40,000 nucleotides of DNA from Glaciecola sp. 33A (GCF_002836745.1 NZ_PJAR01000024.1:163174-203173); one strand, 5' to 3'. Positions 19,745 to 36,928 are shown, counted from the stretch's first letter. Numbers and translations: made by a program. The notes: a model not told the origin generated them from the sequence alone.

Positions 19745-20971
19745 TCAAGAGGTTAATATTTCTTTCATCGAGACACCTAAATTAGCAAGTTTAGCTTCAT
19801 CAATAGTGATATTTTCGATAATTAATTTTTTCCCTATCATGAATTCTGCTGGGCTATTCACTGCATCAACCGCAATAACTTTCTTACCAAGTAAATAGAA
19901 TACTGCAAAACGTCGACCATGCTTTATATCACCACGTACGACTAATGAATCGTAGCCCTGCGATAAACCGGCTATTTGTAATTTCATGTCATATTGATCA
20001 GACCAAAACCAAGGTAAAGTATTATAGGCGACAGATTTATCGCAAATGTAAGCAGCTGCAGTTTTAGCTTGGTCGGTAGCATTTTGTACTGACTCTAATC
20101 TTAAATATTTCTTATAAATCGGATTATAATGCCAAGCACAATCGCCACTTGCGACAATATCAGGGTCGCTTGTACATGCAAATTCATTGACTTCAATACC
20201 ATTACCTACTGCTAAACCTGCTTTTTCTGCAATTTCTTGATTCGGCAATACGCCTACACCGACTATTATTAATTCAGCCGGGTAGCTATTACCGTTGGTG
20301 CAAACAACAGAATTTAGATTATCTTTAGCCTCAATTGATGAAACAATAACTTCAGTAACAACGTTAACCCCTTCTTCCGTATGAACTCGAGTATAAAATT
20401 CAGATAATTGTGGTGCCGTTACACGTTCTAACACTCTCGGCATCATTTCTAAAACGGTAACATCCATCCCCAATTTTCGTAATACCGCTGCGGTTTCTAA
20501 ACCGATATAACCACCACCAATAATGACAGCTTTTTTATCTGGCTTTGCAAGAGTCTTAATATAGTCAACATCTTTCGCTGTTTTTAAATATGAAATTCCT
20601 GCAAGGTCACTACCTGGTATCGTTAATTTTCGAACACGAGAACCTAGAGTGAGAGCTAATTTATCGTAATTAAGTATATCGCCATTGTTTAGTGTTACGG
20701 TTTTATCAGCACGATTAATTGCAGCCAAACCAACGCCTAAATTAAATTCAATATTTTGCTTCTCATAAAAAGAAGCGGGTCGTAATAGAATATTACTTAA
20801 CTCTTTTGTACCCGCTAAGTACGCTTTTGAAAGAGGAGGGCGATGATAAGGTAAGGCTCCTTCATCACCGACAACAATAATACGGCCTTCCCAACATTCT
20901 TGACGTAAACTGACACTTAATTGTGCTCCACTATGGCCAGCACCAATGATAATGCAGGTTTTGTCTAACAT
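19745..20971 (-). CDS. FAD-dependent ferredoxin--NAD(P)+ reductase (putidaredoxin-reductase-like) for the Rieske oxygenase system
   Basis: 408 aa counted from the ATG at 20971, with GGAG 7 nt upstream; the track start is TTG at 20986. It has IIIGAGHSGAQ (FAD) and VIIGGGYIGLE (NADH) dinucleotide folds and the C-terminal domain of this family. Confidence 0.85.
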   Translation of the reverse strand: MLDKTCIIIGAGHSGAQLSVSLRQECWEGRIIVVGDEGALPYHRPPLSKAYLAGTKELSNILLRPASFYEKQNIEFNLGVGLAAINRADKTVTLNNGDILNYDKLALTLGSRVRKLTIPGSDLAGISYLKTAKDVDYIKTLAKPDKKAVIIGGGYIGLETAAVLRKLGMDVTVLEMMPRVLERVTAPQLSEFYTRVHTEEGVNVVTEVIVSSIEAKDNLNSVVCTNGNSYPAELIIVGVGVLPNQEIAEKAGLAVGNGIEVNEFACTSDPDIVASGDCAWHYNPIYKKYLRLESVQNATDQAKTAAAYICDKSVAYNTLPWFWSDQYDMKLQIAGLSQGYDSLVVRGDIKHGRRFAVFYLLGKKVIAVDAVNSPAEFMIGKKLIIENITIDEAKLANLGVSMKEILTS

Positions 20972-21020
20972 TGTTTTACTCCACAATAACTGGGCAGTGT
21001 TACCAGTTTGTACATAATGA

Positions 21021-21953
21021 CTACGTTAGTTTTTGACGGCGGGTTTCTAGATCTAACCCCCCAACTATCGCCCATTCAGCATAATTCTCAGGCGTTGGTT
21101 CTAAATTCAGACGTGGCTTCCAATCGCGGGTTAAATAATCTTCATCTGAATAATATTCAACTTGGCCGCCACCTGGACATTGAAAATACCAGAAGAACGC
21201 AGATGAAATAGGGTGACGGCCTGGTCCTACCAGTGTATCCCATTGACAACCACTAAAATGTAAACCACCACCAACAACTTCATAAATGTCTCTCAACATA
21301 AAGGACACGTGATTAATGCCCTTTTTCCGGTTTGGGACTTTTAATAAAAATAAGTTATGGTGAGTTCCTTCTTCAACACACCGGCTAAAGAACCCGCGTC
21401 CAGGATAAGCATCGGTGATATTAAAACCTAACAAATCGATATAAAAACGTTCATGAGCTTCCAAGTCTTCAACAAAAAAAACTACGTGGGAAATATTTAA
21501 AGGTCTTGCTCTGTCATAAACTGGTGCAGGTAAATCGACTCGAAAAATTTGGTCATAGGTATTACTCGGTGTGCCCTTAACATCTGCTTTTTGGCATTGG
21601 GTAACTTGAAAACCGATAGAGAGACCATTTGGATCTATACAGCGGGGAATACCATCATCTCCCCAAGTAATATCGACAGTTGAAGAAATTTTATCAACAA
21701 AAGCATTAAGTGCCTCTTGATTTGACACTCCCCAGATAACTTCGCGAACTGTAGGCCCCTCTTCAATCGCCTTCGGCAATTGAGGATCTGACGTTTTCCG
21801 TAAAATTATTTGGGATTTCTCTAGCGTTTCCAATACCTTAATATCAGCTTCATCTTTTACTAAATTTAAACCCCAATCAGAGAAAAATTTACACGATAGT
21901 GACATATCATCAACACCGTATGTTACTTTTTCAATTCCAGTTAAACCGTTCAT
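21021..21953 (-). CDS. type I extradiol ring-cleavage dioxygenase (two-domain vicinal oxygen chelate fold)
   Basis: 311 aa counted from MNGLTGIEKVTYGV. The track ORF adds 19 codons that overlap the upstream SDR. The C-terminal domain ISHVVFFVEDLEAHERFY...GTHHNLFLL...INHVSFML is typical of catechol/dihydroxybiphenyl 2,3-dioxygenases. Confidence 0.85.
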   Translation of the reverse strand: MNGLTGIEKVTYGVDDMSLSCKFFSDWGLNLVKDEADIKVLETLEKSQIILRKTSDPQLPKAIEEGPTVREVIWGVSNQEALNAFVDKISSTVDITWGDDGIPRCIDPNGLSIGFQVTQCQKADVKGTPSNTYDQIFRVDLPAPVYDRARPLNISHVVFFVEDLEAHERFYIDLLGFNITDAYPGRGFFSRCVEEGTHHNLFLLKVPNRKKGINHVSFMLRDIYEVVGGGLHFSGCQWDTLVGPGRHPISSAFFWYFQCPGGGQVEYYSDEDYLTRDWKPRLNLEPTPENYAEWAIVGGLDLETRRQKLT

Positions 21954-21975
21954 AATGTAGTTTCCAAAAATTAAT

Positions 21976-22782
21976 TTAAATGTGTTTCGCCATGCCACCT
22001 GAGACATCAATAGTGCTGCCTGTGGTATATGATGATGCTGGTGAAGCTAGGTATAATAATGCTTTCGCTGGCTCTTCAGGATGACCAAACCTTGCTAGTG
22101 GAATATTCTTCTGTTTCGCCAATTGGTTAAGCCATGCTTCGTAAGATTCAGTATGCGGTTCATTTGAAGACTTGGCTTTATCATATCGTTTTTGCCATTG
22201 CCCTGATTCTATCGTACCTAACAAAATTGAGTTGACACGAATACCTTTTCGGGCAAATTCTTTAGCCATACTGTGTACCAAATTTAACAAACCAGCTCTT
22301 GCTGCAGAGGTGGCAACCATGTGAGGCTCAGGTTGTAATGCTAGTAAAGAATTAACACATACTATCGACGGATTATCAGAGCCTTCTAATAAAGGTAAAA
22401 ATGCTTGAGTTGGATATATGACCCCAAAAAACTTCAAATTGAGTTCAGCAACCCATGCTTCATCTGTGGTGTTTGAAAACGTTGAAACACGTCCACCGCC
22501 CGCATTATTAATTAAAGCATTAATGTTTCCAAACCTTTCTTCGACGGCCTTTGCAAAAATGTCTAATTGATCTTTTTCTAGCACATCACAACAACGAGCT
22601 AAAATGTTACTTGTAGGGAATTTATTTTCCAAATAAGCACTTATTTCTGTTAGCGTTGTTTGATTTCGAGCACAAAATGCAACATTAGCACCCTCTGCTA
22701 ATAACAATTCAACCGTCGCTAAACCAATACCCGATGTGCCACCGGTAACAACTACGGTTTTATTTTTTAGACCTAAATCCAT
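21976..22782 (-). CDS. short-chain dehydrogenase/reductase (SDR)
   Basis: 268-aa ORF with the cofactor motif VVTGGTSGIGLA and an NNAG motif. It sits 15 bp downstream of the hydrolase gene. Confidence 0.85.
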   Translation of the reverse strand: MDLGLKNKTVVVTGGTSGIGLATVELLLAEGANVAFCARNQTTLTEISAYLENKFPTSNILARCCDVLEKDQLDIFAKAVEERFGNINALINNAGGGRVSTFSNTTDEAWVAELNLKFFGVIYPTQAFLPLLEGSDNPSIVCVNSLLALQPEPHMVATSAARAGLLNLVHSMAKEFARKGIRVNSILLGTIESGQWQKRYDKAKSSNEPHTESYEAWLNQLAKQKNIPLARFGHPEEPAKALLYLASPASSYTTGSTIDVSGGMAKHI

Positions 22783-22797
22783 TCGTTAAACTCCTCT

Positions 22798-23664
22798 TTA
22801 TTGCTCTATTTTATTTCTAATAAAACAGAGTAAAAAACGTTCGAAAATATCGGCTTGCTCAATATAAACGGCATGCCCCGCATTGGGTATTTCTTGAAAT
22901 ATTCCTGAGTGGCAGGTATGTGCAACTAATTTTGCACTTTCTACAGGAACAACTATGTCGTCTGCGCCGTATAAAACTAACACGGGTCCGGTATAGTTTT
23001 GTATATCATCAATTAAATCAGACGACGCTAACATAGCTGCGGCTGCTATATAGCCGCGTTCCCTCAACCGTCTTGTATTCCACTGTACTAAATCCACTGC
23101 TCCTTGTTTAGCGTTTCCAGATAACAAACGTGATGGGCTTAAATGGGCCATTCCATCAACGCCTGTTTGTGTCATGTCAACTACACGATCATTGACTATT
23201 CCATCTCGAGTTGTTTTACTCTGCTTGCCGTAACCTAACGCGGGATTAACAAAAGTAAGGGATTGTATTTTTTCAGGCCAATTTTTAGCAAAAGCAGCAG
23301 CGATAATGGCCCCTAACGAATGACCTACTAGCTGTATTTTTTCCAGTTGTAAATGGTTGATTAATATCAATAACCGTTTGGCATATGCTTGACTAGCTGA
23401 AGTAGAGTCAACAATTATGTTTGAGTCACCATAACCAGGTGCATCCCAAGCAATTAAACGGTATCCGCCAAACTTACTTTCTAATTGTTGTAACCATGAA
23501 GCCGAGCTAGAACCAATACCATGAAGAAAAACAATCGTTTTATCGCTCTGGACACCATTTTCGCGATAAGAAACTGTTACATCCTTTTCAGTTGCTAACT
23601 GCAGTGGATATTGAGCCAACCTAGTGGTTAATTCTTGCATTCGTTCAGCGGTATTATTTTTCAT
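22798..23664 (-). CDS. alpha/beta-fold hydrolase (meta-cleavage-product hydrolase-like)
   Basis: 288-aa ORF with an oxyanion region VFLHGIGSS, the nucleophile elbow GHSLGA, and a C-terminal NAGH (His) region. Confidence 0.85.
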   Translation of the reverse strand: MKNNTAERMQELTTRLAQYPLQLATEKDVTVSYRENGVQSDKTIVFLHGIGSSSASWLQQLESKFGGYRLIAWDAPGYGDSNIIVDSTSASQAYAKRLLILINHLQLEKIQLVGHSLGAIIAAAFAKNWPEKIQSLTFVNPALGYGKQSKTTRDGIVNDRVVDMTQTGVDGMAHLSPSRLLSGNAKQGAVDLVQWNTRRLRERGYIAAAAMLASSDLIDDIQNYTGPVLVLYGADDIVVPVESAKLVAHTCHSGIFQEIPNAGHAVYIEQADIFERFLLCFIRNKIEQ

Positions 23665-23708
23665 TTATCATAAGCTCACTTATTCAACGTTAACATTCAA
23701 CAATAAAC

Positions 23709-24248
23709 CTAAACATTGCGCTTTATTTTGGATAATGGGTGATAGTCTGGATAAGTAGGTATTTGCGGTTTTCCTGAGCCTAACATAACAAACATTAGCG
23801 CTTCTTCCTGTCCAATATTATTTAAACCACGGTATATTCCAGCAGGAACAGAAACCAGATCTCGTTCATTTAAAACGGTGGTATATCGTTTATCACCATC
23901 TTCTAAAAATAGCTTTATTGTTCCTTTGTAACAAAAAAAGACTTCTTCAACATCATGATGGACATGCATTGGTCCTTCACATCCTGCAGGTAGGCACATA
24001 GTTGAAAAAGTAAAATTTTCAGCCGGCACTACATTCATGTCACTACCTACACCCGCAGCACCAGTTCCTAGATATCTCACTTGTGCACGACGGTAAACAG
24101 GATTGTAATCGGCTTGAAATTTCAAGGCATCCCAATCATATTTTCTACTTGCAAAACGAGCGACTCTCGATTCAATTTGTTCTCCAAATTCAGTATCGAT
24201 ATCGACATTTTCAAATAGTTTTTCGTTTGTTACATTATTATCAGTCAT
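23709..24248 (-). CDS. cupin-domain protein
   Basis: 179-aa ORF with cupin motif 1 GPMHVHHDVEEVFFCYKG and motif 2 VPAGIYRGLNN. Confidence 0.75.
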   Translation of the reverse strand: MTDNNVTNEKLFENVDIDTEFGEQIESRVARFASRKYDWDALKFQADYNPVYRRAQVRYLGTGAAGVGSDMNVVPAENFTFSTMCLPAGCEGPMHVHHDVEEVFFCYKGTIKLFLEDGDKRYTTVLNERDLVSVPAGIYRGLNNIGQEEALMFVMLGSGKPQIPTYPDYHPLSKIKRNV

Positions 24249-24342
24249 TCTTTTATCCTTACAATTTTAAAAATTAATTGTCTATACAAACCAATTAAAT
24301 GTTCTTGATACGAAGGCGATGTTTAAAGCATCAAGACTTTTT

Positions 24343-25092
24343 TTAGTTCATCACAAAGCCGCCATTAATTGGTAATAACTGGCCGGTGATAAAATTTGCA
24401 CTGTCAGAGAGTAAAAAATTTACTACACCAACAACATCTTCTGGTAGTTGAGCGCGAGAAATCGCACGTCCATTTTGATATAGTTGATGACGCTCTTTTG
24501 GAACATACTCTGTCGCATCAACAAGTGTTAGTCCGGGAGCAATGGCATTGACACAGACATTATCATTTCCTAATTCTCGTGCCATTGATTTTGTCATCGC
24601 AATAATGGCTCCTTTACTCGATACATAATGCATCAATTGGGGCGCTCCCCAAAGGGCAGTGTCGGATGCAACATTAACAACTTTCCCGCAACTTGATTGA
24701 CGTAAAAAAGGAGCCGCAGCGCGTGTCATTAACCAGGTTCCTCGTACATTAACATTCATCACCCGGTCCCAAACGTCAATATCAATGTCTTCCATTGAAA
24801 CACCGCCTATTCCTGTCGCTATTGCGCCATTATTAACAAGGCCATCTAAGCCACCCAACATTTTCATCGATTGTGAGACACATGCTTCAATGCTGCGAGG
24901 GTCACCTAAGTCAACTTGAACAAAATGGGCGTCATAACCTGATTTTTGCAAACTGTTCGCCACTGCAGATCCTTCAGTTTCTAAGATATCGGCAATAACG
25001 ATATGTGCACCTTTCTCAACTAAACTGATAGCAAAAGCTTGCCCTAAACCACGTGCAGAACCGGTGATAATGATACGTTTGCCTTTAAGCAT
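24343..25092 (-). CDS. short-chain dehydrogenase/reductase (SDR, dihydrodiol-dehydrogenase-like)
   Basis: It has TGSARGLGQA, NNGA and catalytic YVSSK motifs. The ATG at 25092 has GGAG 6 nt upstream; an alternative ATG lies at 25104. Confidence 0.85.
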   Translation of the reverse strand: MLKGKRIIITGSARGLGQAFAISLVEKGAHIVIADILETEGSAVANSLQKSGYDAHFVQVDLGDPRSIEACVSQSMKMLGGLDGLVNNGAIATGIGGVSMEDIDIDVWDRVMNVNVRGTWLMTRAAAPFLRQSSCGKVVNVASDTALWGAPQLMHYVSSKGAIIAMTKSMARELGNDNVCVNAIAPGLTLVDATEYVPKERHQLYQNGRAISRAQLPEDVVGVVNFLLSDSANFITGQLLPINGGFVMN

Positions 25093-25143
25093 TATTTGCT
25101 CCATTTATCTAGAAATACACTTATTTAATCGACACTTGCTAAG

Positions 25144-25455
25144 CTACAAGTAACCATGTATTTCACCCGCACTTACTCGTATTTCATATTTAATGAGATC
25201 TCGTCCTGGTTGGCGCAAGCATTGACCGCTAGGAATATGAAACAGTGCATTATGAAATGGACATTGCACTGTTTCATTAACCACCTTTCCTTGCGATAAC
25301 AAGAAAAAGTTTTGTGCATGCGGGCAAGCATCTTCTACAGCGTAATACCGGTTATCTAGATGATACAAACCAATATATTGATCATTTATCTGTAATGTGA
25401 GCTTTGTATGTTTAATCAGCTCACTTTCAGTTGCTAAAAATAACCAAGATGTCAT
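25144..25455 (-). CDS. Rieske-type [2Fe-2S] ferredoxin
   Basis: 103-aa ORF with CPH...CPFH (CxH-x17-CxxH) and no catalytic domain. It begins 8 bp after the receptor gene ends. Confidence 0.8.
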   Translation of the reverse strand: MTSWLFLATESELIKHTKLTLQINDQYIGLYHLDNRYYAVEDACPHAQNFFLLSQGKVVNETVQCPFHNALFHIPSGQCLRQPGRDLIKYEIRVSAGEIHGYL

Positions 25456-25463
25456 TATTTGCT

Positions 25464-28082
25464 CTATTCAAACGAGATTTTGAAAGAGAGATACGCTTGT
25501 CGCCCCAATGCATTGTGGGTTAACGGATCATAACCACTTCGCGAAATAACATCAGGCGCTTGCTCATCAAATAAGTTTTTAACACCTAGAGTCAAAGCAG
25601 CAGGAGTACCTTCACCAAAAACAGCGCCTAGATCATAATTAAATTGCACATCAACTGTGGTATGGCTATCAACACTATTTTCAGAATTATCATCTTCATA
25701 ATCACTGACATAACGCACGAATACATTGCTTGAATGTAGATCACCCTTCCAAGCAACGCCTACAGCTCCACGAAGATCAGGCATAGGCACGCCAAAATTG
25801 GTAAAATTTCGTTTGTTTTTGCCATCAATATTACCCGCGATAGGGTCTTCAAGGTCGTAAGTTAAGACATAACTTGTATTAAGTGTAAGATTGACTTTAC
25901 CTATCTCAGTATCAAAGCTTTTAACAATAGATAAATCAATTCCGTCTGTTTCCAAAACACCAGCATTTCTGAAGAATGTGGTTACCGTCAATAATTGACC
26001 ACTGTTAGGATCTCGCTCAAGTTGAGGACCATTTGGATCATTAGCAACAAGTGCCGTAGCATTTTCCGGGGTAATAAATTTGTCATAGTCAAAGCGCCAG
26101 TAATCTATACTCGCTGAGAAATCATTATCAGGTAAAAACCAAGTTAGACCAAGGTTATAAGTGTCTGAGGTTTGCGCTTCTAATGAATTGTCTTGATCAC
26201 CTTCGGTTCTTGATGAAACTGTTGTTAAACCACCTGATACCGGGTCAAAAACCCGCGCTGGTACGGTCAAACCACCAACGGTTTGAAACAAAGAAGGCGC
26301 CTTAAATGATTCACCATAAGTTCCACGAAAACTAAGCTGATCAAACAACCAAATAAAACCAATTTTAGGATCTACCGTATCAAAATCACCTAAATCTTCA
26401 TACCGTAATGCCGCTTGAATATTCAAACCTTCTACCACAGGTATATCTAGTTCTACAAATGCTGCGTAAGTATCAGCATCAGTGGAAAAATCTTGATTTC
26501 CGCGGAAAAAATATAGGTTATCATTTTCTGCCTGTTCGCTATAATCATACTCCAGCTCACTTTTACGATACTGAATACCAGCAGCAAGGGCAATAGTGCC
26601 TTCAGGTACTTCAAATATTTCACCTGAAGTGTGAGCGTCAAACGTGGTTAATGTCGACGTTGCTTCAAAAGCATATAATCCTTGAAAATCTGCAATAACA
26701 CTAGGATCATTAACAGCACCAAATAGTGGGTTATAAAACAAATCATTATTAGGTCCGCCTTGGCCAAACAGGGCAGCTGTAAAACGATCAATTAAGGTAT
26801 CTTGAAGATTAGAATACTCATAAATGTTTTCACTATGCCCTAGTGCTGCTTGCCAACTCCAATTATCGTTAAAGTACCCATTAAAACCAAAAACAGCACG
26901 CCAGGTTTCTGATTTGATATCTACTTCGCTTGATGCTGAGCCTGAGCCACTAGGACGTCCAAAAAATAGTGCCCCTTGAGTATTACCCAAAGCCGCTGCT
27001 GATGGATTTGTTGGCGGAATAAAAGGTGGGAATAAAAGAGGTTGTGAAGGAGAGCCTTTTGTAAGTATCTTGTTGTCGCTATACCCTAGTTCCACAAACA
27101 ATGACGTTTCGTCAGACAGTTTGCTATTAAATTCAGCATAGACGTGGCTTCTTTCTTCTTCGGCGACCATACTAAAAAAATCACCGAAGTCAAAACCACA
27201 AAACCCAATAGGTGTGACACCTGTGGTAGTCCCTGGATTTTCAGCTGCTACTTGTTCACAGCTCGGATCTGCAACACGTTGAGGAGCCCCGGCAGGTTGA
27301 AAAACTAAAAAAGTCCCTGGGTGGCCAAAGTTACTAGTGGCATCTCTTAGTTCAAATTCATCGCTACGATCGGCGGCTGACAATGGAGATCTGTCGAAGT
27401 AACTGGCCGCAAAAATTAAGTTACTGTCATCAAATTCATGCCCATATAAGACACTGAATTGACCATCATGCTGGCTATCACTAGTGGTTGCTTTATAATC
27501 TACATTAAATTCTAGACCAACGAAGTCGCTTTTCGTCTTGAAGTTAGCTACACCTGCCACCGCATCAGAGCCATATAACGATGAGGCGCCATCCTTTAAA
27601 ATTTCGACTCGGCCAATAGCAATGGTCGGTACCAATGAGTTTAAATCAGTAAATTGATCACCATTTAATGTTGTAGCTGCTGTATTGACTTGGCGTCGAC
27701 CATTTAATAACGTCAGTGTTGAACTTACCCCTAAACCCCGCAAATTAATATTAGACGTACCTAGGGAAAAGGTTTGATTAAAGCCATCGTTATTATTTTG
27801 TGCCCCTGCATTAACGGATAATGAACTTACAATATCAACAGCGTTAAACGCGCCTATTTTTTCGATATCATCAGCATCAAGTATTTCAACGGGGGATGGC
27901 CTATCGGCTTGTTCCTGACGTCTTATATAACTGCCGATAACGGAAATTAATTCGACTTCTTTTTTAGCAACTTTTTCATCAGACTTTGGTGGTTCTGCTG
28001 CAAGTGCTGATGATACAGCTATTGCAGACGTTACTAAAATTGTCGCTAATTTTGATGTTGTATTTATTTTAGAATTATTCAC
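25464..28082 (-). CDS. TonB-dependent outer-membrane receptor embedded in the catabolic operon
   Basis: 872-aa ORF with a GTG start and GAGGAG RBS, and signal peptide ...AVSSALA/AE. A TonB-box-like VELISVIGSYI and the plug motifs NLRGLG...LTLLNGRR...GASSLYGSDAVAGVANF are present. The C-terminus is ...AYLSFKISFE. Confidence 0.9.
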   Translation of the reverse strand: MNNSKINTTSKLATILVTSAIAVSSALAAEPPKSDEKVAKKEVELISVIGSYIRRQEQADRPSPVEILDADDIEKIGAFNAVDIVSSLSVNAGAQNNNDGFNQTFSLGTSNINLRGLGVSSTLTLLNGRRQVNTAATTLNGDQFTDLNSLVPTIAIGRVEILKDGASSLYGSDAVAGVANFKTKSDFVGLEFNVDYKATTSDSQHDGQFSVLYGHEFDDSNLIFAASYFDRSPLSAADRSDEFELRDATSNFGHPGTFLVFQPAGAPQRVADPSCEQVAAENPGTTTGVTPIGFCGFDFGDFFSMVAEEERSHVYAEFNSKLSDETSLFVELGYSDNKILTKGSPSQPLLFPPFIPPTNPSAAALGNTQGALFFGRPSGSGSASSEVDIKSETWRAVFGFNGYFNDNWSWQAALGHSENIYEYSNLQDTLIDRFTAALFGQGGPNNDLFYNPLFGAVNDPSVIADFQGLYAFEATSTLTTFDAHTSGEIFEVPEGTIALAAGIQYRKSELEYDYSEQAENDNLYFFRGNQDFSTDADTYAAFVELDIPVVEGLNIQAALRYEDLGDFDTVDPKIGFIWLFDQLSFRGTYGESFKAPSLFQTVGGLTVPARVFDPVSGGLTTVSSRTEGDQDNSLEAQTSDTYNLGLTWFLPDNDFSASIDYWRFDYDKFITPENATALVANDPNGPQLERDPNSGQLLTVTTFFRNAGVLETDGIDLSIVKSFDTEIGKVNLTLNTSYVLTYDLEDPIAGNIDGKNKRNFTNFGVPMPDLRGAVGVAWKGDLHSSNVFVRYVSDYEDDNSENSVDSHTTVDVQFNYDLGAVFGEGTPAALTLGVKNLFDEQAPDVISRSGYDPLTHNALGRQAYLSFKISFE

Positions 28083-28687: not shown

Positions 28688-29767
28688 TTACTCTGACTGG
28701 CTATGCAATACTACTTGTACGTTTTGTTTTTTATGATCCATCAATGCCTTCACTTGGACTCTCGCCGCTTTAGCAATTTCAAAGCGAATGCGGGATACAC
28801 CTAAATCATGTTGATAGAGAAACTCATTATCTCGAGCATCGGGATCAAGCGCTTCAAGTAGAACCCTGTCTTGCTCAAGTACATCCCAATGACGCCCTTC
28901 AGTTCTATTTTTATACATGAAGTGCCACAAATCTTTTATCCAGCCTTCTACTTTTCTAACTCGCCAAAAATAAACCTGACAAGTATTTTCATCAATAGGT
29001 GTTGCAAAACCAATGATTGCAAAATTACCGCCTGGTCCAACCTTCTTTTGATAAGGTATTGCAAGTCTAAGCCAATGTGTACCAGTATCGCCGAATTCTA
29101 CCCAGTCAAAATTCATTCCCGTTTGACCTTCTTTTTCAAAAAGCCAACCGTTCTTAGTTTTCTCTAATCGCATTTTGGCTTTTTTCTCACCCCAAGCCAT
29201 AGTATGAGAATCGCCATGCAGATAAGCACCATGCATTGGGTCCATCACATTATCAATGGCATAGCGGTAACTGGTTTTCCAGATAGCGGTACAGAGGAAT
29301 GATGAATACTCTTCTTTAACAAGTTCATCCGGTAATTCTAAGGCTACTGGCTCAGGGTTAAGTTCGTCGCCAAAATAAGCAAAAATAGCGCCCTTTATTT
29401 CTTGAATTGGGTAACTATGATTTTTCTTAGTATGCTCCATTGGGCAGTTATCAACCGCGGGTACGTTTACTACCATGCCATCTTTATCTACTTCGATGCC
29501 ATGATACCAACAAGCGAGCTTATCACCCTTGTTTATGCCTAGTGACATACGTGCACCACGGTGTGGACAACTATCTGAAATCGCGTGTACATTGCCGTCA
29601 TTATCTCGCCATACAGCAATTTTTTCACCTAAACGTGTGATACCTACTGGTGTATTTTTTACCCCCCAACTAGGCAGTATTGGGTACCATAAGTTTTTAA
29701 CACCTAAACTAATACGTTGTTCGACTAATTTATCGAACTCATCATTAGTTATAGTTTGATCCGACAT
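28688..29767 (-). CDS. Rieske non-heme iron oxygenase, alpha-only (phthalate/CarAa/KshA-like family)
   Basis: 359-aa ORF with the Rieske motif CPHRGARMSLG...CWYHG and the mononuclear iron motif DNVMDPMHGAYLH. PIDENT is shared with CarAa-type enzymes. No beta-subunit gene is adjacent. Confidence 0.9.
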   Translation of the reverse strand: MSDQTITNDEFDKLVEQRISLGVKNLWYPILPSWGVKNTPVGITRLGEKIAVWRDNDGNVHAISDSCPHRGARMSLGINKGDKLACWYHGIEVDKDGMVVNVPAVDNCPMEHTKKNHSYPIQEIKGAIFAYFGDELNPEPVALELPDELVKEEYSSFLCTAIWKTSYRYAIDNVMDPMHGAYLHGDSHTMAWGEKKAKMRLEKTKNGWLFEKEGQTGMNFDWVEFGDTGTHWLRLAIPYQKKVGPGGNFAIIGFATPIDENTCQVYFWRVRKVEGWIKDLWHFMYKNRTEGRHWDVLEQDRVLLEALDPDARDNEFLYQHDLGVSRIRFEIAKAARVQVKALMDHKKQNVQVVLHSQSE

Positions 29768-29798
29768 TGGTTGCTCCTTCTCTTACATATGTGTAAAT

Positions 29799-30098
29799 TT
29801 ACTGCTTTGCCAAATGAGACAATTCTAGTGTGAAGTTTTCTTCGGTGAATTCATTGCCATCTCTGTTATTAATACCTAATGTATTAAGCTTAGCGACTAT
29901 TTCAGCTAATTCGTGTGTTTCTGCTAAGACGGTCTCTAACGCATCACCTAAATTATTTTCATACTCAGTTGGCAGCGCCGAACGAGTTTGCCAAACAAGA
30001 TTATCAATATGATCATAGGTTTCAATAGAGCCTTTGGCTGGCCTGGTCTCAAGCCTAATTTGCTGCCAAAGTACTAAATTTTCATTATAGTCTTTCAT
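29799..30098 (-). CDS. small acidic hypothetical protein
   Basis: 99-aa ORF packed tightly between the MFS gene and the Rieske oxygenase gene (31-bp gap). It has no signal peptide or TM segment. Confidence 0.6.
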   Translation of the reverse strand: MKDYNENLVLWQQIRLETRPAKGSIETYDHIDNLVWQTRSALPTEYENNLGDALETVLAETHELAEIVAKLNTLGINNRDGNEFTEENFTLELSHLAKQ

Positions 30099-30193: not shown

Positions 30194-31471
30194 CTATGTA
30201 TTTATACCCTTATTAATTTTCATTTCCTTTGAATTACTTGACTCATGGGTCGGGTATGGGCTCATCAGTGAAAACAAAATACAGGAAAATATACTCATTC
30301 CGCAGCCAATAGCTAGTATATGTTGATATGATCCCCAGTGTTCAAAACTTAAACCCAACATGTAAGGACCAATACCTGCGCCTAATAAAAAACCAGCTAA
30401 TACATAACCATAAATTTGAGCAAAAGACTTCAAACCAAAATAACGACCAACTAAATACCCAATTAAATCACTTTCAGCACCAAAGCCTAGACCGATTAGA
30501 AATATAGCCAGTAGTTGAAGGGGCATTGTGTCAGCATCAATCAATATTCCTAAACCTAAAGCCGCGAGGGAAAAAAATAAAATGGCAACATACGGTGCGA
30601 AAAATCGGTCTAATAAATATCCAACTAAAATTCGACCAAAAAAAGTTGCTAGCCCCATAAAACCAGCAGCACTCGCTGCCATCGTTGCCGTTAATCCACG
30701 GTCTTTTAGTAATGGGACTATGTGGGGTAGTAAGCCAGTCAAGAAAGCCGACATAATAGTTATTCCTGCACACATTAGCCAAAAGTTACGCTTTCTTAAT
30801 GCTTCACTAGCCAACAAACCTAACAACGCAGGTCTTTCTGTTACTGTAATATTTCTATCATCAGGTTCATTTCGAATGATAAAGCTTACCAAAGGTAATG
30901 ATATCAGCATCACCAACGCTGCTAATGTATAATACGTGGATTGCCAATCCGTAATATTCAGTAATGATTGCGTTAAAATAGGCATAACCATATAACCTAA
31001 ACCCATACCTGATGCCGCAATACCGATACTGATCCCTCGCCGTTTATTAAACCAAGATGATAGGAGTCTTACATAAGCGATACTTTGGGCCCCTGTTGAA
31101 GCAACACCTGCGATAAAGGTAAGAGTGTAAAAAACATTTAAAGAATGTAGGCTTGAAGGCACAAGCGCTAATGCCAGTCCCATCAGCGCTATCGACGGGA
31201 TTAATACTTTTTTTACCCCTAAACAATCAATTAAACGGCCAATAAATGGTGCTACAAGAATGGGAGATAAAGTAAAAATAGTAAGGGCGAGCATTAATTC
31301 AGAACGCCCCCAGCTATATTCTTGCTGTAGAGGTAACAACATAACACCAAGTGTGCCATACATAAGTGGCCCCGGACTGAACATCATTCCAACCACACAG
31401 ACAAATAGTATTTTCCAACCAAAATAAGATTTAGAATCTTCATTTTCTAAAGATGATTGAGCATTTTTCAA
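30194..31471 (-). CDS. MFS transporter
   Basis: 425-aa ORF with about 12 hydrophobic segments and a GRLIDCLGVKK-type loop 2-3 motif. It is the first gene of the minus-strand operon. Confidence 0.85.
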   Translation of the reverse strand: MKNAQSSLENEDSKSYFGWKILFVCVVGMMFSPGPLMYGTLGVMLLPLQQEYSWGRSELMLALTIFTLSPILVAPFIGRLIDCLGVKKVLIPSIALMGLALALVPSSLHSLNVFYTLTFIAGVASTGAQSIAYVRLLSSWFNKRRGISIGIAASGMGLGYMVMPILTQSLLNITDWQSTYYTLAALVMLISLPLVSFIIRNEPDDRNITVTERPALLGLLASEALRKRNFWLMCAGITIMSAFLTGLLPHIVPLLKDRGLTATMAASAAGFMGLATFFGRILVGYLLDRFFAPYVAILFFSLAALGLGILIDADTMPLQLLAIFLIGLGFGAESDLIGYLVGRYFGLKSFAQIYGYVLAGFLLGAGIGPYMLGLSFEHWGSYQHILAIGCGMSIFSCILFSLMSPYPTHESSNSKEMKINKGINT

Positions 31472-31567
31472 TGTTAACTCCTTTGCTGTAGATTTGATCG
31501 CATATGCATATGTAACTAACTTGTTTACAGAATAACCTTTTCTTTAACATTAATTCCACTATAAATA

Positions 31568-31579
31568 AAAACAATGTTT
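31568..31579. promoter_or_regulatory. AAAACAATGTTT, the reverse complement of the AAACATTGTTTT motif, site 2
   Basis: It lies 97-108 bp upstream of the MFS start. Confidence 0.35.
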
Positions 31580-31830
31580 CCGATATAAAACAACCGTAAA
31601 CCTGTACAATACTAAAGTCAAGTAAAATGTACATCTGCAACATCTGTACATCTGTAACAAAAGCAACAATATACAATATACAATAACTAATTGATAATAA
31701 GAGGATTTATAGGAGTAATAAAAACAAAATCTATATGTTAAATTATATCTCTCCTTACAAAAACAAGGTATTTAGCTTAAATTACTTACTTGACAATTAA
31801 ACAAAGTAACTTAATATTAGTTCGCATATA

Positions 31831-31842
31831 AAACATTGTTTT
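31831..31842. promoter_or_regulatory. AAACATTGTTTT palindromic motif, site 3
   Basis: It lies 68-79 bp upstream of the ThDP-enzyme GTG start. The extended 13-nt palindrome is aaaaca-t-tgtttt. Confidence 0.35.
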
Positions 31843-31909
31843 TAATTTTACGTATTTTGGACTAACAAATAGTGAATTAAAACGTGAGCTTAATCAGGAG
31901 ATAATTATC

Positions 31910-33586
31910 GTGAATAGTAAAAATGATGAATTCCAACAATACGGAACTGTTGGAGAGTTAATAGCAAAATTTTTAACTGCTTGTGAACTAAGAGCTGCTT
32001 TTGGTGTTATCAGTATTCATAATATGCCAATTCTAGATGCATTCGCCAAATACGGTGAAATTAACTTTGTACCAAGTAGAGGTGAAGCTGGTGGTGTTAA
32101 TATGGCAGATTCCTATGCTCGAGTGAGTGGAAACCTTGGGGTTGCCGTTACAAGTACTGGTACTGCCGCGGGCAATGGTGCAGGCGCACTAGTTGAAGCA
32201 CTTACTGCCGGCACACCTTTATTACATATTACCGGCCAAATAGAATCAGAACATATTGACCGTGATCGTGCTTATATTCATGAAGCACCTTTTCAACTGA
32301 AAATGTTACAGGCAGTATCAAAAGCGGCATTTCGAATTTGGTCTCCTGAAAGTGCTCTTGGGATATTACGAGAAGCGGTGCAATGCGCATTAACACCTCC
32401 TCGTGGCCCTGTTAGCATCGAGATCCCTATTGACGTACAAAAAGCACAAGTTAAGTTCCCTACAAATATTTCTCCTTTGCCTATTGTTGAGGCCCCATTG
32501 CCTAATGATCAAGTTGAACAGTTGGTTGCACAATTTAAAAACGTAAAAAGACCCATGTTATGGCTTGGTGGTGGCTCTAGACATGCCTTTAAAGCAGCCG
32601 AACGTTTAGCCAATATGGGTGTTGGTATTGTTACTAGTACTAACGGTCGAGCAGTTGTTAGTGAAGACCACCCCATGTCAATCGGAGCATTCAATGCCAC
32701 TCCTTTTTCCGAAGACCTGTACAAAAGTATCGATCTAATGGTCGTGGTGGGCTCTCGTTTAAGAAGTAATGAAACATGGAATTACCAACTTGGTTTACCG
32801 AAAAATTTAGTAGTGGTTGATTTGGATGCGAAAGCCGATGGAAAAACGTATAAAAATAATGGTTTTATCTATGCGGACAGTAAGAAATTATTAGAGTCTT
32901 TAGCTGACCGTTTGGAGGGACAGCTTAACATTGATCCAACCCTAGCAAAAAGCATTGAGCAAACTCGTCAAAAATCTGAAGCTGAGTTACGCAAAGGTTT
33001 AGGTCCTTACAGTGATTTAGTTACCCAATTGCAAGAGTTATATACTAATGAGATGCCTTGGGTTCGTGATGTTACACTTTCAAACAGTATGTGGGGAAAT
33101 CGTTTACTCAAAATAGCAGACCCGTTGAATGGTGTTCATGCGCTTGGTGGTGGTATCGGCCAAGGATTACCTATGGGTATAGGTGCTGCCGTTGCAGCAG
33201 GTGGTAGAAAAGTAATTACTTTAACCGGAGATGGCGGGCTTAACCTTTGTATTGGTGAAATTGCTACTGCTGCTCAAGAAAAAGTAAATATGACTTTACT
33301 GATTATGAACGATTCAGGGTATGGCGTAATACGTAATATTCAAGATGCTGATTATGGATGTCGCCAACACTACTCTTCAATTCAAATACCTGACTATGGC
33401 TTAATCAGTAAATCTGTTGGCATTCCTTTTTTTAGAGTGAGTTCAATTGCTGATTTTAAAGAAATAATGAAGCAAGCTTTAGAAATTAATGGCCCTGCTG
33501 TTGTTGAAGTAGACATGGTTAAAATCGGTCCATTTAGCGCCAATTTTGCAGGTCCACCGAAGCGTATTAAAGCAGGTGAGGCATGA
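31910..33586 (+). CDS. thiamine-diphosphate-dependent enzyme (acetolactate-synthase / 2-oxoacid-decarboxylase superfamily)
   Basis: 558-aa ORF with a GTG start and AGGAG RBS. It has the catalytic Glu region SRGEAGGVNMADSYAR and the ThDP-binding motif GDGGLNLCIGEIATAAQEKVNMTLLIMND. Confidence 0.85.
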   Translation: MNSKNDEFQQYGTVGELIAKFLTACELRAAFGVISIHNMPILDAFAKYGEINFVPSRGEAGGVNMADSYARVSGNLGVAVTSTGTAAGNGAGALVEALTAGTPLLHITGQIESEHIDRDRAYIHEAPFQLKMLQAVSKAAFRIWSPESALGILREAVQCALTPPRGPVSIEIPIDVQKAQVKFPTNISPLPIVEAPLPNDQVEQLVAQFKNVKRPMLWLGGGSRHAFKAAERLANMGVGIVTSTNGRAVVSEDHPMSIGAFNATPFSEDLYKSIDLMVVVGSRLRSNETWNYQLGLPKNLVVVDLDAKADGKTYKNNGFIYADSKKLLESLADRLEGQLNIDPTLAKSIEQTRQKSEAELRKGLGPYSDLVTQLQELYTNEMPWVRDVTLSNSMWGNRLLKIADPLNGVHALGGGIGQGLPMGIGAAVAAGGRKVITLTGDGGLNLCIGEIATAAQEKVNMTLLIMNDSGYGVIRNIQDADYGCRQHYSSIQIPDYGLISKSVGIPFFRVSSIADFKEIMKQALEINGPAVVEVDMVKIGPFSANFAGPPKRIKAGEA

Positions 33587-34374
33587 TTAAAATTGGCCTA
33601 ATAGGCTTTGGTGCAATCGGTCGGTGTGTGATCGAAACACTCCCCAAAGCGTTAACTGAAGAATATGAAGTTATCGGTATCCTAACTAGAAAAGCTGCTG
33701 ACAATTGGGTGAATAATATTCCCTCTTATAGCGATATAGACCAGTTACTTGCAAAACAACCCGACATTATTGTCGAATGTGCGGGTCATCATGCGGTTAA
33801 AGAATATGGTTGTAAAATATTAGAAGCCAATATATCACTCGTTATATCATCCATTGGTGCCTTAGCTGATAGTGTTTTATATCAACAACTTAAAGATTCA
33901 TCTACGGCTAGTAAGGCAAAAATATATCTGCCGGCTGGCGCCATTGGTGGTATTGATGCCCTTGTTGCCGCAAAACTTGGCGGGATTCACGATGTCACTT
34001 ATACCATGCGAAAGCCTCCCAAGGCTTGGCAAGGTTCGGTTGCTGAGACGGTGGTTGACTTGAATAGTCTTAAGCAGGCAACCGTTATTTTTTCTGGCTC
34101 TGCCGGTGAAGCAGCAACACTTTACCCTAAAAACACCAATGTAACTGCAACCATTGCGTTAGCGGGATTAGGTTTTGATGAGACAAAAGTAGAATTAATT
34201 GCAGATCCCAACATTATTGACAATATACACGAAATATCGGTATCCGGTGAAACAGGGTATTTTACCATTGTATTAAAAGGAAAACCCTCTGTGTATAACC
34301 CAAAAACTTCAGCATTAACGGCTTTTAGTGTCACTAAGTGCGTTGCTGATTTTGGCTCATCGATCATTATTTAA
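33583..34374 (+). CDS. aspartate-dehydrogenase-domain (NadX-like) NAD(P) oxidoreductase
   Basis: 263-aa ORF whose ATG overlaps the upstream stop (ATGA). It has the N-terminal Rossmann sequence IGLIGFGAIGR and a KNTNVTATIALAG region typical of the NadX family. Confidence 0.7.
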   Translation: MIKIGLIGFGAIGRCVIETLPKALTEEYEVIGILTRKAADNWVNNIPSYSDIDQLLAKQPDIIVECAGHHAVKEYGCKILEANISLVISSIGALADSVLYQQLKDSSTASKAKIYLPAGAIGGIDALVAAKLGGIHDVTYTMRKPPKAWQGSVAETVVDLNSLKQATVIFSGSAGEAATLYPKNTNVTATIALAGLGFDETKVELIADPNIIDNIHEISVSGETGYFTIVLKGKPSVYNPKTSALTAFSVTKCVADFGSSIII

Positions 34375-34391
34375 ATTTATAGGAGTTTACA

Positions 34392-35870
34392 ATGTCTGAC
34401 ACGAAAATACTTGTAGGTGGCGAATGGAAGCTAGGTTCCGGCAAATTAATTAGATCCATTAATCCGGCCAACGGTGAGCTGATTACTGAATTTAAAGGTG
34501 CGAGCCTAGAAGATGTTGATATTGCCGTTGCGGCGGGTAAACGTGCCATGTATGACCCAACGTGGTACCACTTAAAATCGTTTAAGCGTGCAGCTATTCT
34601 TTCTAATATTGCGAGGTTAATACATCGTGATGTTGACAAATTAGCGGCGCTACAAACCTTAGATACGGGAAAATGTTTATCTGAAACTAAGGCATTGGTG
34701 CAGAGTGCTGCCGAAACATTTCAATATACGGCAGCAGCGCTTGAAATCCAAGAAGGAGAACTCCCTCCTTCTCGAGGCGACTTTTTCACTATGAGTGTTT
34801 ACGAGCCAATGGGGGTTATTGGAGCCATTACACCCTGGAATTCACCCATAGCAAGTGATGCACAAAAGCTTGCCCCTGCCCTAGCAGCAGGTAATGCGGT
34901 AATCATAAAGCCTGCAGAATGGGCGTCATTAGTGTCGTTAGCCTTAGCTGAAATATGCATGGAAGCGGGGTTACCTAAAGGGCTACTCTCCGTTTTACCC
35001 GGCTCTGGTTCAGTTATTGGTGATAAATTAGTCCGTCATCCTGACGTTAAGAAGATATCCTTTACTGGTGGTACCTCAACAGGTAGGCTTATTGCGGGTA
35101 TTGCTGCAGATAAATTAATGCCGGTATCTTTAGAGTTAGGTGGTAAGTCACCGACAATTGTTTTTGAAGATGCCGATGTAGAGCATGCTATTAACGGAAT
35201 ATTGTACGGCATTTTTAGCTCTACTGGGCAATCTTGTATTGCCGGATCTCGCTTATTTATTGCCGCTAAAATTTATGACAGCTTTGTTGACAAACTAGTT
35301 GCTCGTTGTAAGGCATTAAATGTTGGTTTGCCTAATGATAGCTCTACACAAGTAGCGCCTTTAGTGTCATTTCAACATCGTGACGTTGTAGCTAACTATG
35401 TTGAAATAGCAAAAAAAGAAGGCGCTAAGGTTTTATGCGGTGGGGAACTGTTGCAAGGTCAACCTTATGATGATGGTGCCTTCTACCCTCCTACAATTTT
35501 ATCTGGCTTAAGTAATAATACTCAAACCTGCCAGGAAGAAATATTTGGCCCTGTACTGGTGGTATTGCCTTTTGACAATGAGCAAGATCTTATCCAGCAA
35601 GCTAATGATTCAGTATTTGGTTTAGCCTGTGGGTTATGGACTCAAGACTATAAAAAAGCCCTAAACTTTTCCCAAAAAATTGCTGCAGGTACCGTTTGGA
35701 TCAATACCTATAAGCAATTTAGCATTGCCACTCAATTTGGTGGTGTGAAAGAAAGTGGATTAGGACGAGAAAAAGGTCGAAACAGTATTCTAGGCTATAT
35801 GCAACAAAAAAGCCTTTACTGGGGATTGAATCAAGAGCCACTAAGTTGGGCTGATCCAAGAAGTAAGTAA
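34392..35870 (+). CDS. NAD(P)+-dependent aldehyde dehydrogenase
   Basis: 492-aa ORF with RBS AGGAG. It has the catalytic Glu in LELGGKSP, the catalytic Cys in GQSCIAGSR, and a cofactor GSGSVIG motif. Confidence 0.9.
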   Translation: MSDTKILVGGEWKLGSGKLIRSINPANGELITEFKGASLEDVDIAVAAGKRAMYDPTWYHLKSFKRAAILSNIARLIHRDVDKLAALQTLDTGKCLSETKALVQSAAETFQYTAAALEIQEGELPPSRGDFFTMSVYEPMGVIGAITPWNSPIASDAQKLAPALAAGNAVIIKPAEWASLVSLALAEICMEAGLPKGLLSVLPGSGSVIGDKLVRHPDVKKISFTGGTSTGRLIAGIAADKLMPVSLELGGKSPTIVFEDADVEHAINGILYGIFSSTGQSCIAGSRLFIAAKIYDSFVDKLVARCKALNVGLPNDSSTQVAPLVSFQHRDVVANYVEIAKKEGAKVLCGGELLQGQPYDDGAFYPPTILSGLSNNTQTCQEEIFGPVLVVLPFDNEQDLIQQANDSVFGLACGLWTQDYKKALNFSQKIAAGTVWINTYKQFSIATQFGGVKESGLGREKGRNSILGYMQQKSLYWGLNQEPLSWADPRSK

Positions 35871-36106
35871 TATTGAGCAGGATGGGCCGATGTGCATGGT
35901 TCGATATTTTATATTTGCTTAATTATAAATACTAATAGCTGAATATCGAACATTACTAAACCATTATTCCCTATAGAGTTTAAAATACAAAATATACTGC
36001 GAATGCTATTGTTAACTAACTATTGCTGCTAATATAATTAGTTTTATATACGAAACACATTACACATTGCGCATGTAACGTGAACTAACAAGATTAAGCT
36101 TAACTT

Positions 36107-36928
36107 TTGGAGAATAATTACAACGTGGAAAATGCATTAGTGAAAACTGAATCTGAGCAATCAAATCGATATATGGTTCCTGGCTTAATCCGTGGATTGA
36201 AGATACTGCAAGCTTTTAGCAGTGAAAAACCTTTCTTGGGGGTTTCTGATATAGCTAGAGAGTTGGATGTGTCACGTTCAACTGCATTTCGTCTCTCACT
36301 AACGTTAGAAAATATGGGGTTTTTAAAGCGTGTTAAACACTCAAAAAAATATTGCTTAGGTTTAAAGGTATTAGATCTTGGCTTTAAACTATTAGCTGGA
36401 ATGGATATTGTCGACATCGCACGACCTCATATGGAGGAATTAAGTGAGAATACAAAAGTGTGCTCACACCTTGCTGTAAGAGATGGAATAAGCGTCGTTT
36501 ACATTGCGCGAATACTAGGTAAGCATCATACTGTTAGCTCTGTTGGTGTTGGCACTAGATTTCCGGCGTACGCCACATCTACAGGGCGTATATTGCTTGC
36601 TAACTTATCAATCGCTGAACTTGCTACTTTGTATGAAGGTATTGAATTGAAAAAAATCACTAAAAATACCCCGTTAACTATTGGAGACCTTATTAATCAA
36701 ATAGAGCAAGACAAGTCCGATGGCTACACATTAAGTTGGGAAACTTACGAAAAGAATCTCGCGAGCCTCGCTGTACCGATAAGAGATAATACAAGAGAAA
36801 TTGTAGCATCTCTTAATGTCAGTTGCCCTACGACAACTTATAGTAGAAGTGAGCTACTAGAGCAAGTGCTACCAGAGTTAATGCAAAAAGCAGCAAGTAT
36901 ATCGACTGCGTTAGGCTATAGGCATTAA
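36107..36928 (+). CDS. IclR family transcriptional regulator
   Basis: 273-aa ORF with the HTH GVSDIARELDVSRSTAFRLSLTLENMGFL and a C-terminal IclR effector domain. The start is uncertain: TTG 36107, GTG 36125 or ATG 36133. Confidence 0.85.
   Translation: MENNYNVENALVKTESEQSNRYMVPGLIRGLKILQAFSSEKPFLGVSDIARELDVSRSTAFRLSLTLENMGFLKRVKHSKKYCLGLKVLDLGFKLLAGMDIVDIARPHMEELSENTKVCSHLAVRDGISVVYIARILGKHHTVSSVGVGTRFPAYATSTGRILLANLSIAELATLYEGIELKKITKNTPLTIGDLINQIEQDKSDGYTLSWETYEKNLASLAVPIRDNTREIVASLNVSCPTTTYSRSELLEQVLPELMQKAASISTALGYRH

Follow-up and report, generated by a model that had tools for sequence, protein, structure and literature searches.

In pseudomonads, the classical kynurenate ('quinoline') pathway begins with kynurenate 7,8-hydroxylase (EC 1.14.99.2), a dihydroxylating NADH-dependent oxygenase, followed by an NAD-dependent dihydrodiol dehydrogenase (EC 1.3.1.18) and an Fe(II) extradiol enzyme, 7,8-dihydroxykynurenate 8,8a-dioxygenase (EC 1.13.11.10), which gives 5-(3-carboxy-3-oxopropenyl)-4,6-dihydroxypicolinate. 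After ring opening, this product is reduced to the oxopropyl derivative and then converted to the formylethyl and carboxyethyl derivatives. Glutamate and alanine, together with organic acids, are formed at its end (Horibata 1961, cited in PMC11354673). We analyzed a 40,000-nucleotide stretch of the Glaciecola sp. 33A genome (GCF_002836745.1, NZ_PJAR01000024.1:163174-203173; hereafter, the window), which carries a catabolic island at 18.2-36.9 kb. The island is a variant of an oxygenase/extradiol catabolic cluster with an unusual lower pathway and receptor-mediated uptake. Judged from its gene content, kynurenate (4-hydroxyquinoline-2-carboxylate) or a close quinoline-2-carboxylate, e.g., xanthurenate, is our tentative assignment for the substrate, to which we give nearly an even chance. 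That the island and its orthologues are the missing kynurenate-pathway genes, including those for the orphan activities EC 1.14.99.2, 1.3.1.18, and 1.13.11.10, with a new lower half and a receptor-mediated entry of a metal-chelating acid, is a substantial possibility, if short of probable. A literature search found neither genes assigned to the bacterial kynurenate pathway nor a published substrate for the cluster or any of its orthologues.

Gene families were assigned with Pfam and NCBIfam scans of the open reading frames (ORFs) in the window. All 16 genes that an earlier note on this DNA had placed between 19745 and 36928 were recovered at the same coordinates and with the same families, and no island protein scored high enough to be named as a particular catabolic enzyme by an NCBIfam equivalog model. 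At the family level, the island encodes a complete oxygenase system of the kind needed for kynurenate hydroxylation, i.e., an oxygenase in which the Rieske and mononuclear-iron motifs are preserved, together with a Rieske ferredoxin and an FAD reductase. The oxygenase (28688..29767, minus strand) is of the alpha-only type, with Rieske and VanA_C domains and no beta subunit, and its motifs CPHRG..CWYHG and D-x2-H-x4-H are invariant among the aligned orthologues. Its closest solved relatives are the carbazole 1,9a-dioxygenase CarAa, phthalate-type oxygenases, and 2-oxoquinoline 8-monooxygenase, with the similarity covering approximately the N-terminal half (query residues about 20-190, E about 1e-22 to 1e-12). 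That relatives of the oxygenase act on N-heterocycles or aromatic acids was counted in favor of the proposed substrate class. The FAD-dependent ferredoxin-NAD(P)+ reductase (19745..20986, minus strand; Pyr_redox_2 and Reductase_C) is closest to the NCBIfam models AndAa and HcaD, scoring below the cut-off of both, and the Rieske-type [2Fe-2S] ferredoxin (25144..25455, minus strand; Rieske / Rieske_2) resembles AndAb and HcaC.

The dehydrogenase and the extradiol dioxygenase of the pathway also have counterparts with intact active sites. A classical short-chain dehydrogenase/reductase (SDR), hereafter SDR1 (24343..25104, minus strand; adh_short), retains the Ser-Tyr-Lys center and is a candidate cis-dihydrodiol dehydrogenase. 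A two-domain dioxygenase of the vicinal oxygen chelate (VOC) family (type I extradiol-like; 21021..21953, minus strand; Glyoxalase domain) has the His, His, Glu ligands, which are invariant in nine orthologues along with the catalytic His and Tyr positions, and its relatives in the PDB are homoprotocatechuate (nearest) and catechol 2,3-dioxygenases. The VOC gene was first listed at 21021-22010; since its orthologues align from the ATG at 21953, this is probably the true start, and the gene would not overlap the neighboring SDR gene.

The remaining enzymes could account for the lower half of the pathway. The second SDR (SDR2; 21976..22782, minus strand) is an atypical member of the PRK07062 family (NF005468, 410 bits vs cut-off 266), in which the catalytic Tyr-x3-Lys of SDRs is replaced by Thr-x3-Arg, a substitution kept in all orthologues from Burkholderia to the marine metagenome-assembled genomes (MAGs). 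As SDR2 thus lacks the Tyr/Lys center of alcohol dehydrogenases, a different kind of reduction is plausible. Its nearest solved structure is PDB 3LF1 ('Short Chain Oxidoreductase Q9HYA2', 312 bits); Q9HYA2 is presumably a Pseudomonas aeruginosa PAO1 protein from the PA3504-PA3511 region, where we take the gene order to be the same. The thiamine diphosphate (ThDP)-dependent enzyme (31910..33586, plus strand; TPP_enzyme N, M, and C) belongs to the PRK07064 family (NF005470, 803 bits vs 495), is the sole copy above this cut-off in the genome, and is a candidate 2-oxoacid decarboxylase. It is co-conserved with an NAD(P)-dependent aldehyde dehydrogenase (ALDH; 34392..35870, plus strand; Aldedh, 541 bits) that resembles BADH and HpaE (HpaE, 455 bits) at scores below the NCBIfam cut-offs, and that is absent from some marine versions of the cluster. 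By their families, the two enzymes suit the shortening of a 2-oxoacid side chain.

Between the ThDP and ALDH genes lies one for an aspartate dehydrogenase (AspDH)-family protein (33583..34374, plus strand; Asp_DH_C and NAD_binding_3), whose PDB relatives are 2DC1 and 1J5P. It passes two NCBIfam cut-offs (NF009828, 307 bits vs 177; TIGR03855, 209.3 vs 206.55), and by its scores and domain architecture it is a predicted member of the L-aspartate dehydrogenase (NadX) family, which would suit a nitrogen-bearing C4 product. A monocupin (23709..24248, minus strand; Cupin_2), probably metal-dependent, has an invariant H-x-H-x3-E motif and a motif 2 without His, and in a fold search its AlphaFold model matched MncA, oxalate oxidase/decarboxylase, and Ni-quercetinase. 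Among solved structures, the alpha/beta-fold hydrolase (22798..23664, minus strand; Abhydrolase_1) has the C-C hydrolases MhpC, HsaD, and BphD as its nearest relatives, and its GHSLG motif, Asp, and His are conserved among the orthologues.

We propose that the acid is imported by a TonB-dependent receptor and a major facilitator superfamily (MFS) transporter, and that the oxygenase, fed by the reductase and the Rieske ferredoxin, would form the 7,8-cis-dihydrodiol, which SDR1 would re-aromatize to 7,8-dihydroxykynurenate. The VOC dioxygenase would then open the carbocyclic ring to 5-(3-carboxy-3-oxopropenyl)-4,6-dihydroxypicolinate, SDR2 may reduce the side-chain double bond to give the oxopropyl compound, the ThDP enzyme would decarboxylate this 2-oxoacid to the aldehyde, and the ALDH would convert the aldehyde to the carboxyethyl compound. 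The cupin might cleave the C4-C4a bond of the resulting nine-carbon hydroxypyridone in the manner of a beta-dicarbonyl dioxygenase, after which the hydrolase would cleave the amide to 2-oxoglutarate and aminofumarate/iminoaspartate. Iminoaspartate would be a natural substrate for the AspDH-like enzyme, so that the C4 unit would leave as aspartate. In the marine variant, oxaloacetate from iminoaspartate hydrolysis could be decarboxylated to pyruvate by the malic enzyme encoded at the left end of the island, which would fit the reported alanine.

To profile the distribution of the cluster, the oxygenase was used in a scan of one genome per species that returned 443 relatives, and the window proteins were compared by tblastn with the best 80 loci of the 443, which were fetched. 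Thirteen genes occur in a fixed order (Rieske ferredoxin-HTH_62-oxygenase-SDR-cupin-hydrolase-IclR-SDR-ThDP-AspDH-ALDH-VOC-reductase) in about 60 Burkholderia, Paraburkholderia, Caballeronia, and Trinickia genomes, at 35-63% identity. Ten core genes (those for the oxygenase, the HTH_62 protein, two SDRs, the cupin, the hydrolase, IclR, the ThDP enzyme, the AspDH-like protein, and the VOC dioxygenase) are kept in marine alphaproteobacterial and SAR324 MAGs, and the genes for the Rieske ferredoxin, the reductase, and the ALDH are present in most, not all, of the carrier loci. Acinetobacter baumannii has the full core cluster beside a divergent IclR gene, and oxygenase orthologues were also detected in Klebsiella, Cupriavidus, Ralstonia, and Novosphingobium records. 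The shared gene order in such distant genomes indicated a conserved pathway rather than a chance neighborhood, and the idea of one co-conserved catabolic unit in the earlier note was borne out by the synteny of the same genes in dozens of genomes.

The versions of the cluster differ in their transporters. A porin and a second IclR gene accompany the Burkholderia versions, the marine alphaproteobacterial ones come with a NitT/TauT-type ABC importer, and A. baumannii has an MFS transporter; these importers of the other carriers indicate a small acid. Of the loci compared, only Paraglaciecola arctica (L001) and three metagenome contigs of marine origin (L100, L101, and L102) share with the window its TonB receptor, its adrenodoxin-type ferredoxin, and its MFS gene. 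Together with the malic enzyme, these three mark a marine gammaproteobacterial variant. When the accessory genes of the 80 loci were clustered for clues to the substrate, nothing emerged beyond porins, genes of ABC importers, and flanks particular to a lineage, and the names in a database of 5.8 billion proteins were generic and gave no substrate. The A. baumannii version of the operon closes with a 398-aa protein (L099:25581-26777) without a Pfam or NCBIfam match.

An independent, organism-level line of support for the kynurenate assignment comes from A. baumannii, which carries the full core cluster and of which strains AYE and ATCC 19606 were reported to grow on kynurenic acid as the sole carbon source (PMC10732645). 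Several observations weigh against this assignment. It is based on the logic of enzyme families plus this one correlation, and many aromatics support growth of A. baumannii. The roles given to the cupin, the hydrolase, the AspDH-like enzyme, and SDR2 are guesses, and the model of the cupin matches only generic cupins. A tblastn search of 84 loci detected no tryptophan 2,3-dioxygenase or kynureninase gene up to 10 kb from the cluster, and in the Glaciecola genome these two genes are on other contigs. Five marine alphaproteobacterial/SAR324 loci (L003, L029, L030, L046, and L048) are without the reductase, Rieske ferredoxin, and ALDH genes. In a JGI metagenome contig (L102), an arylsulfatase-like gene (6729-8417) separates the MFS gene from the HTH_62 gene and hints that this relative uses a sulfated substrate or some other compound; a DHDPS/aldolase-family gene (17648-18544) after the VOC gene of this contig was counted as unfavorable or neutral.

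Two of these loci have further features of their own. In L046 at least, the NitT/TauT ABC importer comes with an NMT1-like binding protein, and a gene for a 770-aa amidase-like protein follows the VOC gene. In L102, the hydrolase gene is seemingly cut down to an 89-aa ORF.

The genes for uptake across the outer and inner membranes, which the earlier note had listed, are both present in the island. The TonB-dependent receptor (25464..28082, minus strand) comprises a Plug domain and a beta-barrel, and its similarity to solved receptors in the PDB is limited to the plug domain. The MFS transporter (30194..31471, minus strand; MFS_1) is of the monocarboxylate / oxalate-formate type, with the SfMCT L-lactate transporter as its best NCBIfam match, under the cut-off; the monocarboxylate type was counted in favor of the proposed substrate class. 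Between the MFS and ThDP genes is a divergent control region (31472..31909) with two copies of the perfect palindrome AAACATTGTTT. Copies are at 31568-31579 and 31830-31842 in this region and at 28132-28143, the last being an operator-like site 50 bp upstream of the receptor gene. Allowing at most one mismatch, AAACATTGTTT has six matches in the window vs 1.2 expected. The divergent control region also has a TTGACA-16-TAATAT site at 31790-31817. The pattern fits common control, presumably by the IclR-family regulator encoded at the right end of the island (36107..36928, plus strand; HTH_IclR and IclR_C), which is PcaR/PcaU/PobR-like (TIGR02431, 212 bits, below the cut-off of 285). Acting at the AAACATTGTTT palindromes, this regulator probably keeps three promoters repressed, and the substrate or a pathway intermediate would lift the repression by binding to it.

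The likeliest of the other explanations, though we consider it rather unlikely, is a small aromatic or N-heterocyclic acid with no relation to kynurenate, such as an indole-carboxylate, a substituted picolinate or quinaldate, or an aromatic acid with a sulfonate or sulfate group. The marine NitT/TauT (NMT1-type) importers are of the type used for sulfonates and pyrimidines, one relative (L102) has the arylsulfatase-like gene, and the oxygenase family also holds demethylases and monooxygenases. However, the island encodes no follow-up enzymes for desulfonation or demethylation, and it would be hard to see what the set of ThDP enzyme, ALDH, and AspDH-like protein contributes to the breakdown of most of these compounds.

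An aromatic or unusual amino acid is an unlikely substrate. It would be deaminated by the AspDH-like protein and shortened by the ThDP enzyme and the ALDH to an arylacetate-type acid (Ehrlich-type), and the ring would then be degraded by the Rieske oxygenase, an SDR, the extradiol dioxygenase, and the hydrolase. The genes for the ThDP enzyme, the AspDH-like protein, and the ALDH do form their own divergent operon in the window, homoprotocatechuate 2,3-dioxygenases are the nearest solved relatives of the VOC enzyme, and the ALDH resembles HpaE at 455 bits. In most carriers, however, these three genes are in the middle of a single operon instead of an upstream module. They sit inside the core operon in Burkholderia and Acinetobacter and are part of the conserved pathway, no separate addition to it. 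The AspDH family, whose NF009828 model is passed, is known for aspartate and not for aromatic amino acids, the island has no lower hpa-type genes (isomerase, decarboxylase, hydratase, or aldolase), and none of the transporters is an amino-acid permease, these being of the monocarboxylate MFS or NitT/TauT type.

The earlier note had raised the idea of a bulky aromatic or alicyclic compound, e.g., a lignin-derived dimer, a diterpenoid, or a steroid, entering via the TonB receptor, in which case the ThDP enzyme could be a 1,2-dione ring hydrolase; this now appears quite improbable. The comparison derives from cyclohexane-1,2-dione hydrolase and IolD, and the two SDRs, the ThDP enzyme, and the ALDH do resemble the logic of a cyclohexane-1,2-diol to dione to acid conversion, just as the location of the receptor inside the operon, with its own predicted operator-bearing promoter, would suit a large substrate. 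Yet the receptor is limited to a small marine sub-lineage, which makes it a lineage-specific solution for uptake and not evidence for a bulky substrate, and elsewhere the importers are porins, MFS transporters, or NitT/TauT ABC systems, pointing to a small acid. Furthermore, the island has no LigZ/LigY-type or KshA/HsaC-type equivalog and no CoA-ligase/beta-oxidation genes, and the VOC enzyme retains a catechol-type extradiol center. The enzyme set fits an N-heteroaromatic acid of the kynurenate type better than the substrates put forward in that note, which also included carbazole-like heterocycles and phthalate-like acids.

A mosaic of unrelated functions side by side, to which the 246-bp gap and the receptor and second ferredoxin inserted mid-operon might point, is highly improbable and was rejected, given a gene order conserved over Burkholderiaceae, Acinetobacter, marine alphaproteobacteria, and SAR324 MAGs and a palindrome common to all three control regions.

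The presence of the cluster in Glaciecola sp. 33A is patchy with respect to its relatives. Searches of 120 genomes sampled from its family, among them two of its genus, and of 399 sampled evenly across the class detected no oxygenase orthologue; the absence from the family genomes supports lateral acquisition, as the earlier note had suggested. In a maximum-likelihood tree of the oxygenase, the window sequence groups with marine metagenome sequences, and this group joins, rather than A. baumannii, a mixed clade of marine MAGs (SAR324, unclassified proteobacteria, and one Verrucomicrobiota bin). The branching within Burkholderiaceae agrees with taxonomy. Horizontal acquisition of the region at 18.2-36.9 kb is well supported. 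The base composition of the island is indistinguishable from that of its flanks.

DNA homology with P. arctica spans window positions 18203-36932. Since it starts at 18203, the malic-enzyme gene is counted in the island, and the unit is larger than the 19745-36928 that the earlier note had outlined, of which the right end stands and the left end does not. The gene encodes a short-form NAD(P) malic enzyme (18197..19438, minus strand; Pfam malic and Malic_M) that is 90% identical at the protein level to the P. arctica copy adjoining the reductase gene. Copies elsewhere in same-genus genomes have a DNA identity of 70-71%, and the metagenome contig L100 has a malic-enzyme gene in the same position as in the window. 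The gene is inherited together with the cluster, and on this side the P. arctica homology covers it exactly. At the other end, the P. arctica homology stops at 36932, 4 bp past the IclR stop codon, and 22 bp later a fragment of IS66 TnpB (Orf2) follows (36951..37193, minus strand; PF05717, 27.3 bits, profile 59-93 of 101). The IS66 scar proposed for this edge is thus there, at a marginal score (27.3 bits vs the TnpB_IS66 cut-off of 26.6). Of a complete IS66 element (TnpA, TnpB, TnpC, and terminal inverted repeats), the TnpB fragment alone remains, as a remnant. Beside it, a 157-aa ORF (37383-37856) matches only the C-terminal part of DUF4143 (profile 57-160 of 160) and is probably a truncated gene.

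Within the island, the minus-strand genes are separated by intergenic gaps of 8-95 bp, plus one of 246 bp, according to the ORF listing and in agreement with the earlier description. That description had also joined the ThDP, AspDH-like, ALDH, and IclR genes in one divergent unit. The first three do form such a unit; the 236-bp gap between ALDH and IclR holds a terminator-like hairpin (35883-35903) and a promoter-like site (36009-36038), and therefore the unit is read as three genes followed by a separately transcribed regulator.

To the left of the island, window positions 1-18200 have almost no synteny with two same-genus genomes. The sole good match there is a second TonB receptor gene (11115-14093), with 84% DNA identity in one same-genus genome. 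A 1293-aa ORF (3410-7291) fuses 4Fe-4S ferredoxin, pyridine-nucleotide-disulfide oxidoreductase, and molybdopterin oxidoreductase domains, and adjoins genes for an AraC regulator and an AMP-binding enzyme. The neighborhood around the island looks like a variable region.

Two small proteins are encoded next to the oxygenase. One is an adrenodoxin/putidaredoxin-type [2Fe-2S] ferredoxin (28329..28643, minus strand; Fer2) that resembles fdx_isc. The other is a 99-aa HTH_62 protein (29799..30098, minus strand; PF20552), the gene of which adjoins the oxygenase gene, or sits a few kb away, in nearly all loci. This constant pairing suggests an accessory role, and the HTH_62 protein may be an accessory subunit of the oxygenase instead of a DNA binder. 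Its AlphaFold model has a C-terminal three-helix bundle and a conserved N-terminus at low confidence, in which the best-conserved motifs (N5, Q37, R39, P43, and E47) fall; a fold search with the model gave no match at E below 1. In the draft genome of P. arctica BSs20135, the oxygenase orthologue (L001:10001-11040) loses its frame near residue 287 while the tblastn similarity runs on past the end of the ORF, which is due to either a frameshift mutation or an assembly error.

If the kynurenate assignment is true, a 60-year-old pathway known only biochemically gains its genes. Kynurenate is a tryptophan metabolite with host signaling and immunomodulatory functions, and, since the cluster or its oxygenase occurs in A. 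baumannii, in Klebsiella, in members of the Burkholderia cepacia complex, and presumably in P. aeruginosa, kynurenate turnover by these bacteria could then be tested. The marine variant suggests that a dissolved heteroaromatic acid is actively scavenged via a receptor, by a pathway spread horizontally among unrelated ocean bacteria. Whatever the substrate, the pairing of oxygenase and HTH_62 protein, an SDR without the Tyr/Lys center, and the catabolic use of an AspDH-family protein pose testable functional questions.

In comparison with known systems, the island is not a member of the bph/car/cmt-type clusters, as its ORFs include no beta subunit, hydratase, aldolase, or acetaldehyde dehydrogenase, and membership in the hsa clusters was rejected likewise. 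The scores of the island proteins against the BphC, BphD, and HsaD models stay far under the respective cut-offs, and the statement of the earlier note that the gene set does not match bph, car, cmt, or ksh/hsa thus holds, with no beta subunit, hydratase/aldolase, or equivalog reaching its cut-off. With the car (carbazole) and oxoOR (2-oxoquinoline) systems, the island shares an alpha-only oxygenase of the homotrimer type, a ferredoxin, a possible preference for N-heterocycles, and a reductase of the glutathione reductase (GR) type. Unlike the island, the car system has an extradiol enzyme of another class (CarB) and a hydratase/aldolase route to anthranilate.

DdvT is the TonB receptor for the lignin dimer DDVA in Sphingobium SYK-6. 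The island likewise has a TonB receptor gene among oxygenase genes, along with an MFS inner-membrane transporter, but its enzymes are unrelated, with no LigZ (LigB-type) or LigY (amidohydrolase). Membership in the DDVA (lig) system was rejected, since the extradiol enzyme is of the VOC type, the hydrolase has an alpha/beta fold, and LigB and amidohydrolase domains are absent. For the cupin, the comparison is with Dke1, a cupin-type beta-diketone dioxygenase. The island cupin is also small and probably metal-dependent, and by analogy it could cleave a cyclic beta-dicarbonyl (4-hydroxy-2-pyridone) to a carboxylate and an alpha-keto carbonyl; this is a mechanistic analogy alone, as its H-x-H-x3-E motif comes without the motif-2 His and its model has no specific structural match.

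The Burkholderia/Paraburkholderia clusters (e.g., P. xenovorans LB400 chromosome 2) and that of A. baumannii have the same 10-13-gene synteny at 35-63% identity. The window differs from the Burkholderia-type cluster in being split into divergent operons and in having the receptor, the adrenodoxin-type ferredoxin, the MFS transporter, and the malic enzyme in addition. As for the classical kynurenate pathway, the steps proposed for the cupin, the hydrolase, and the AspDH-like enzyme are inferred, and the kynurenine-pathway genes are not co-located with the island. The classical pathway is known only from biochemistry (PMC11354673, citing Horibata 1961), and its end products contain nitrogen. By enzyme type, its steps would map one-to-one onto the oxygenase system, SDR1, the VOC dioxygenase, SDR2 (as a candidate), the ThDP enzyme, and the ALDH of the island.

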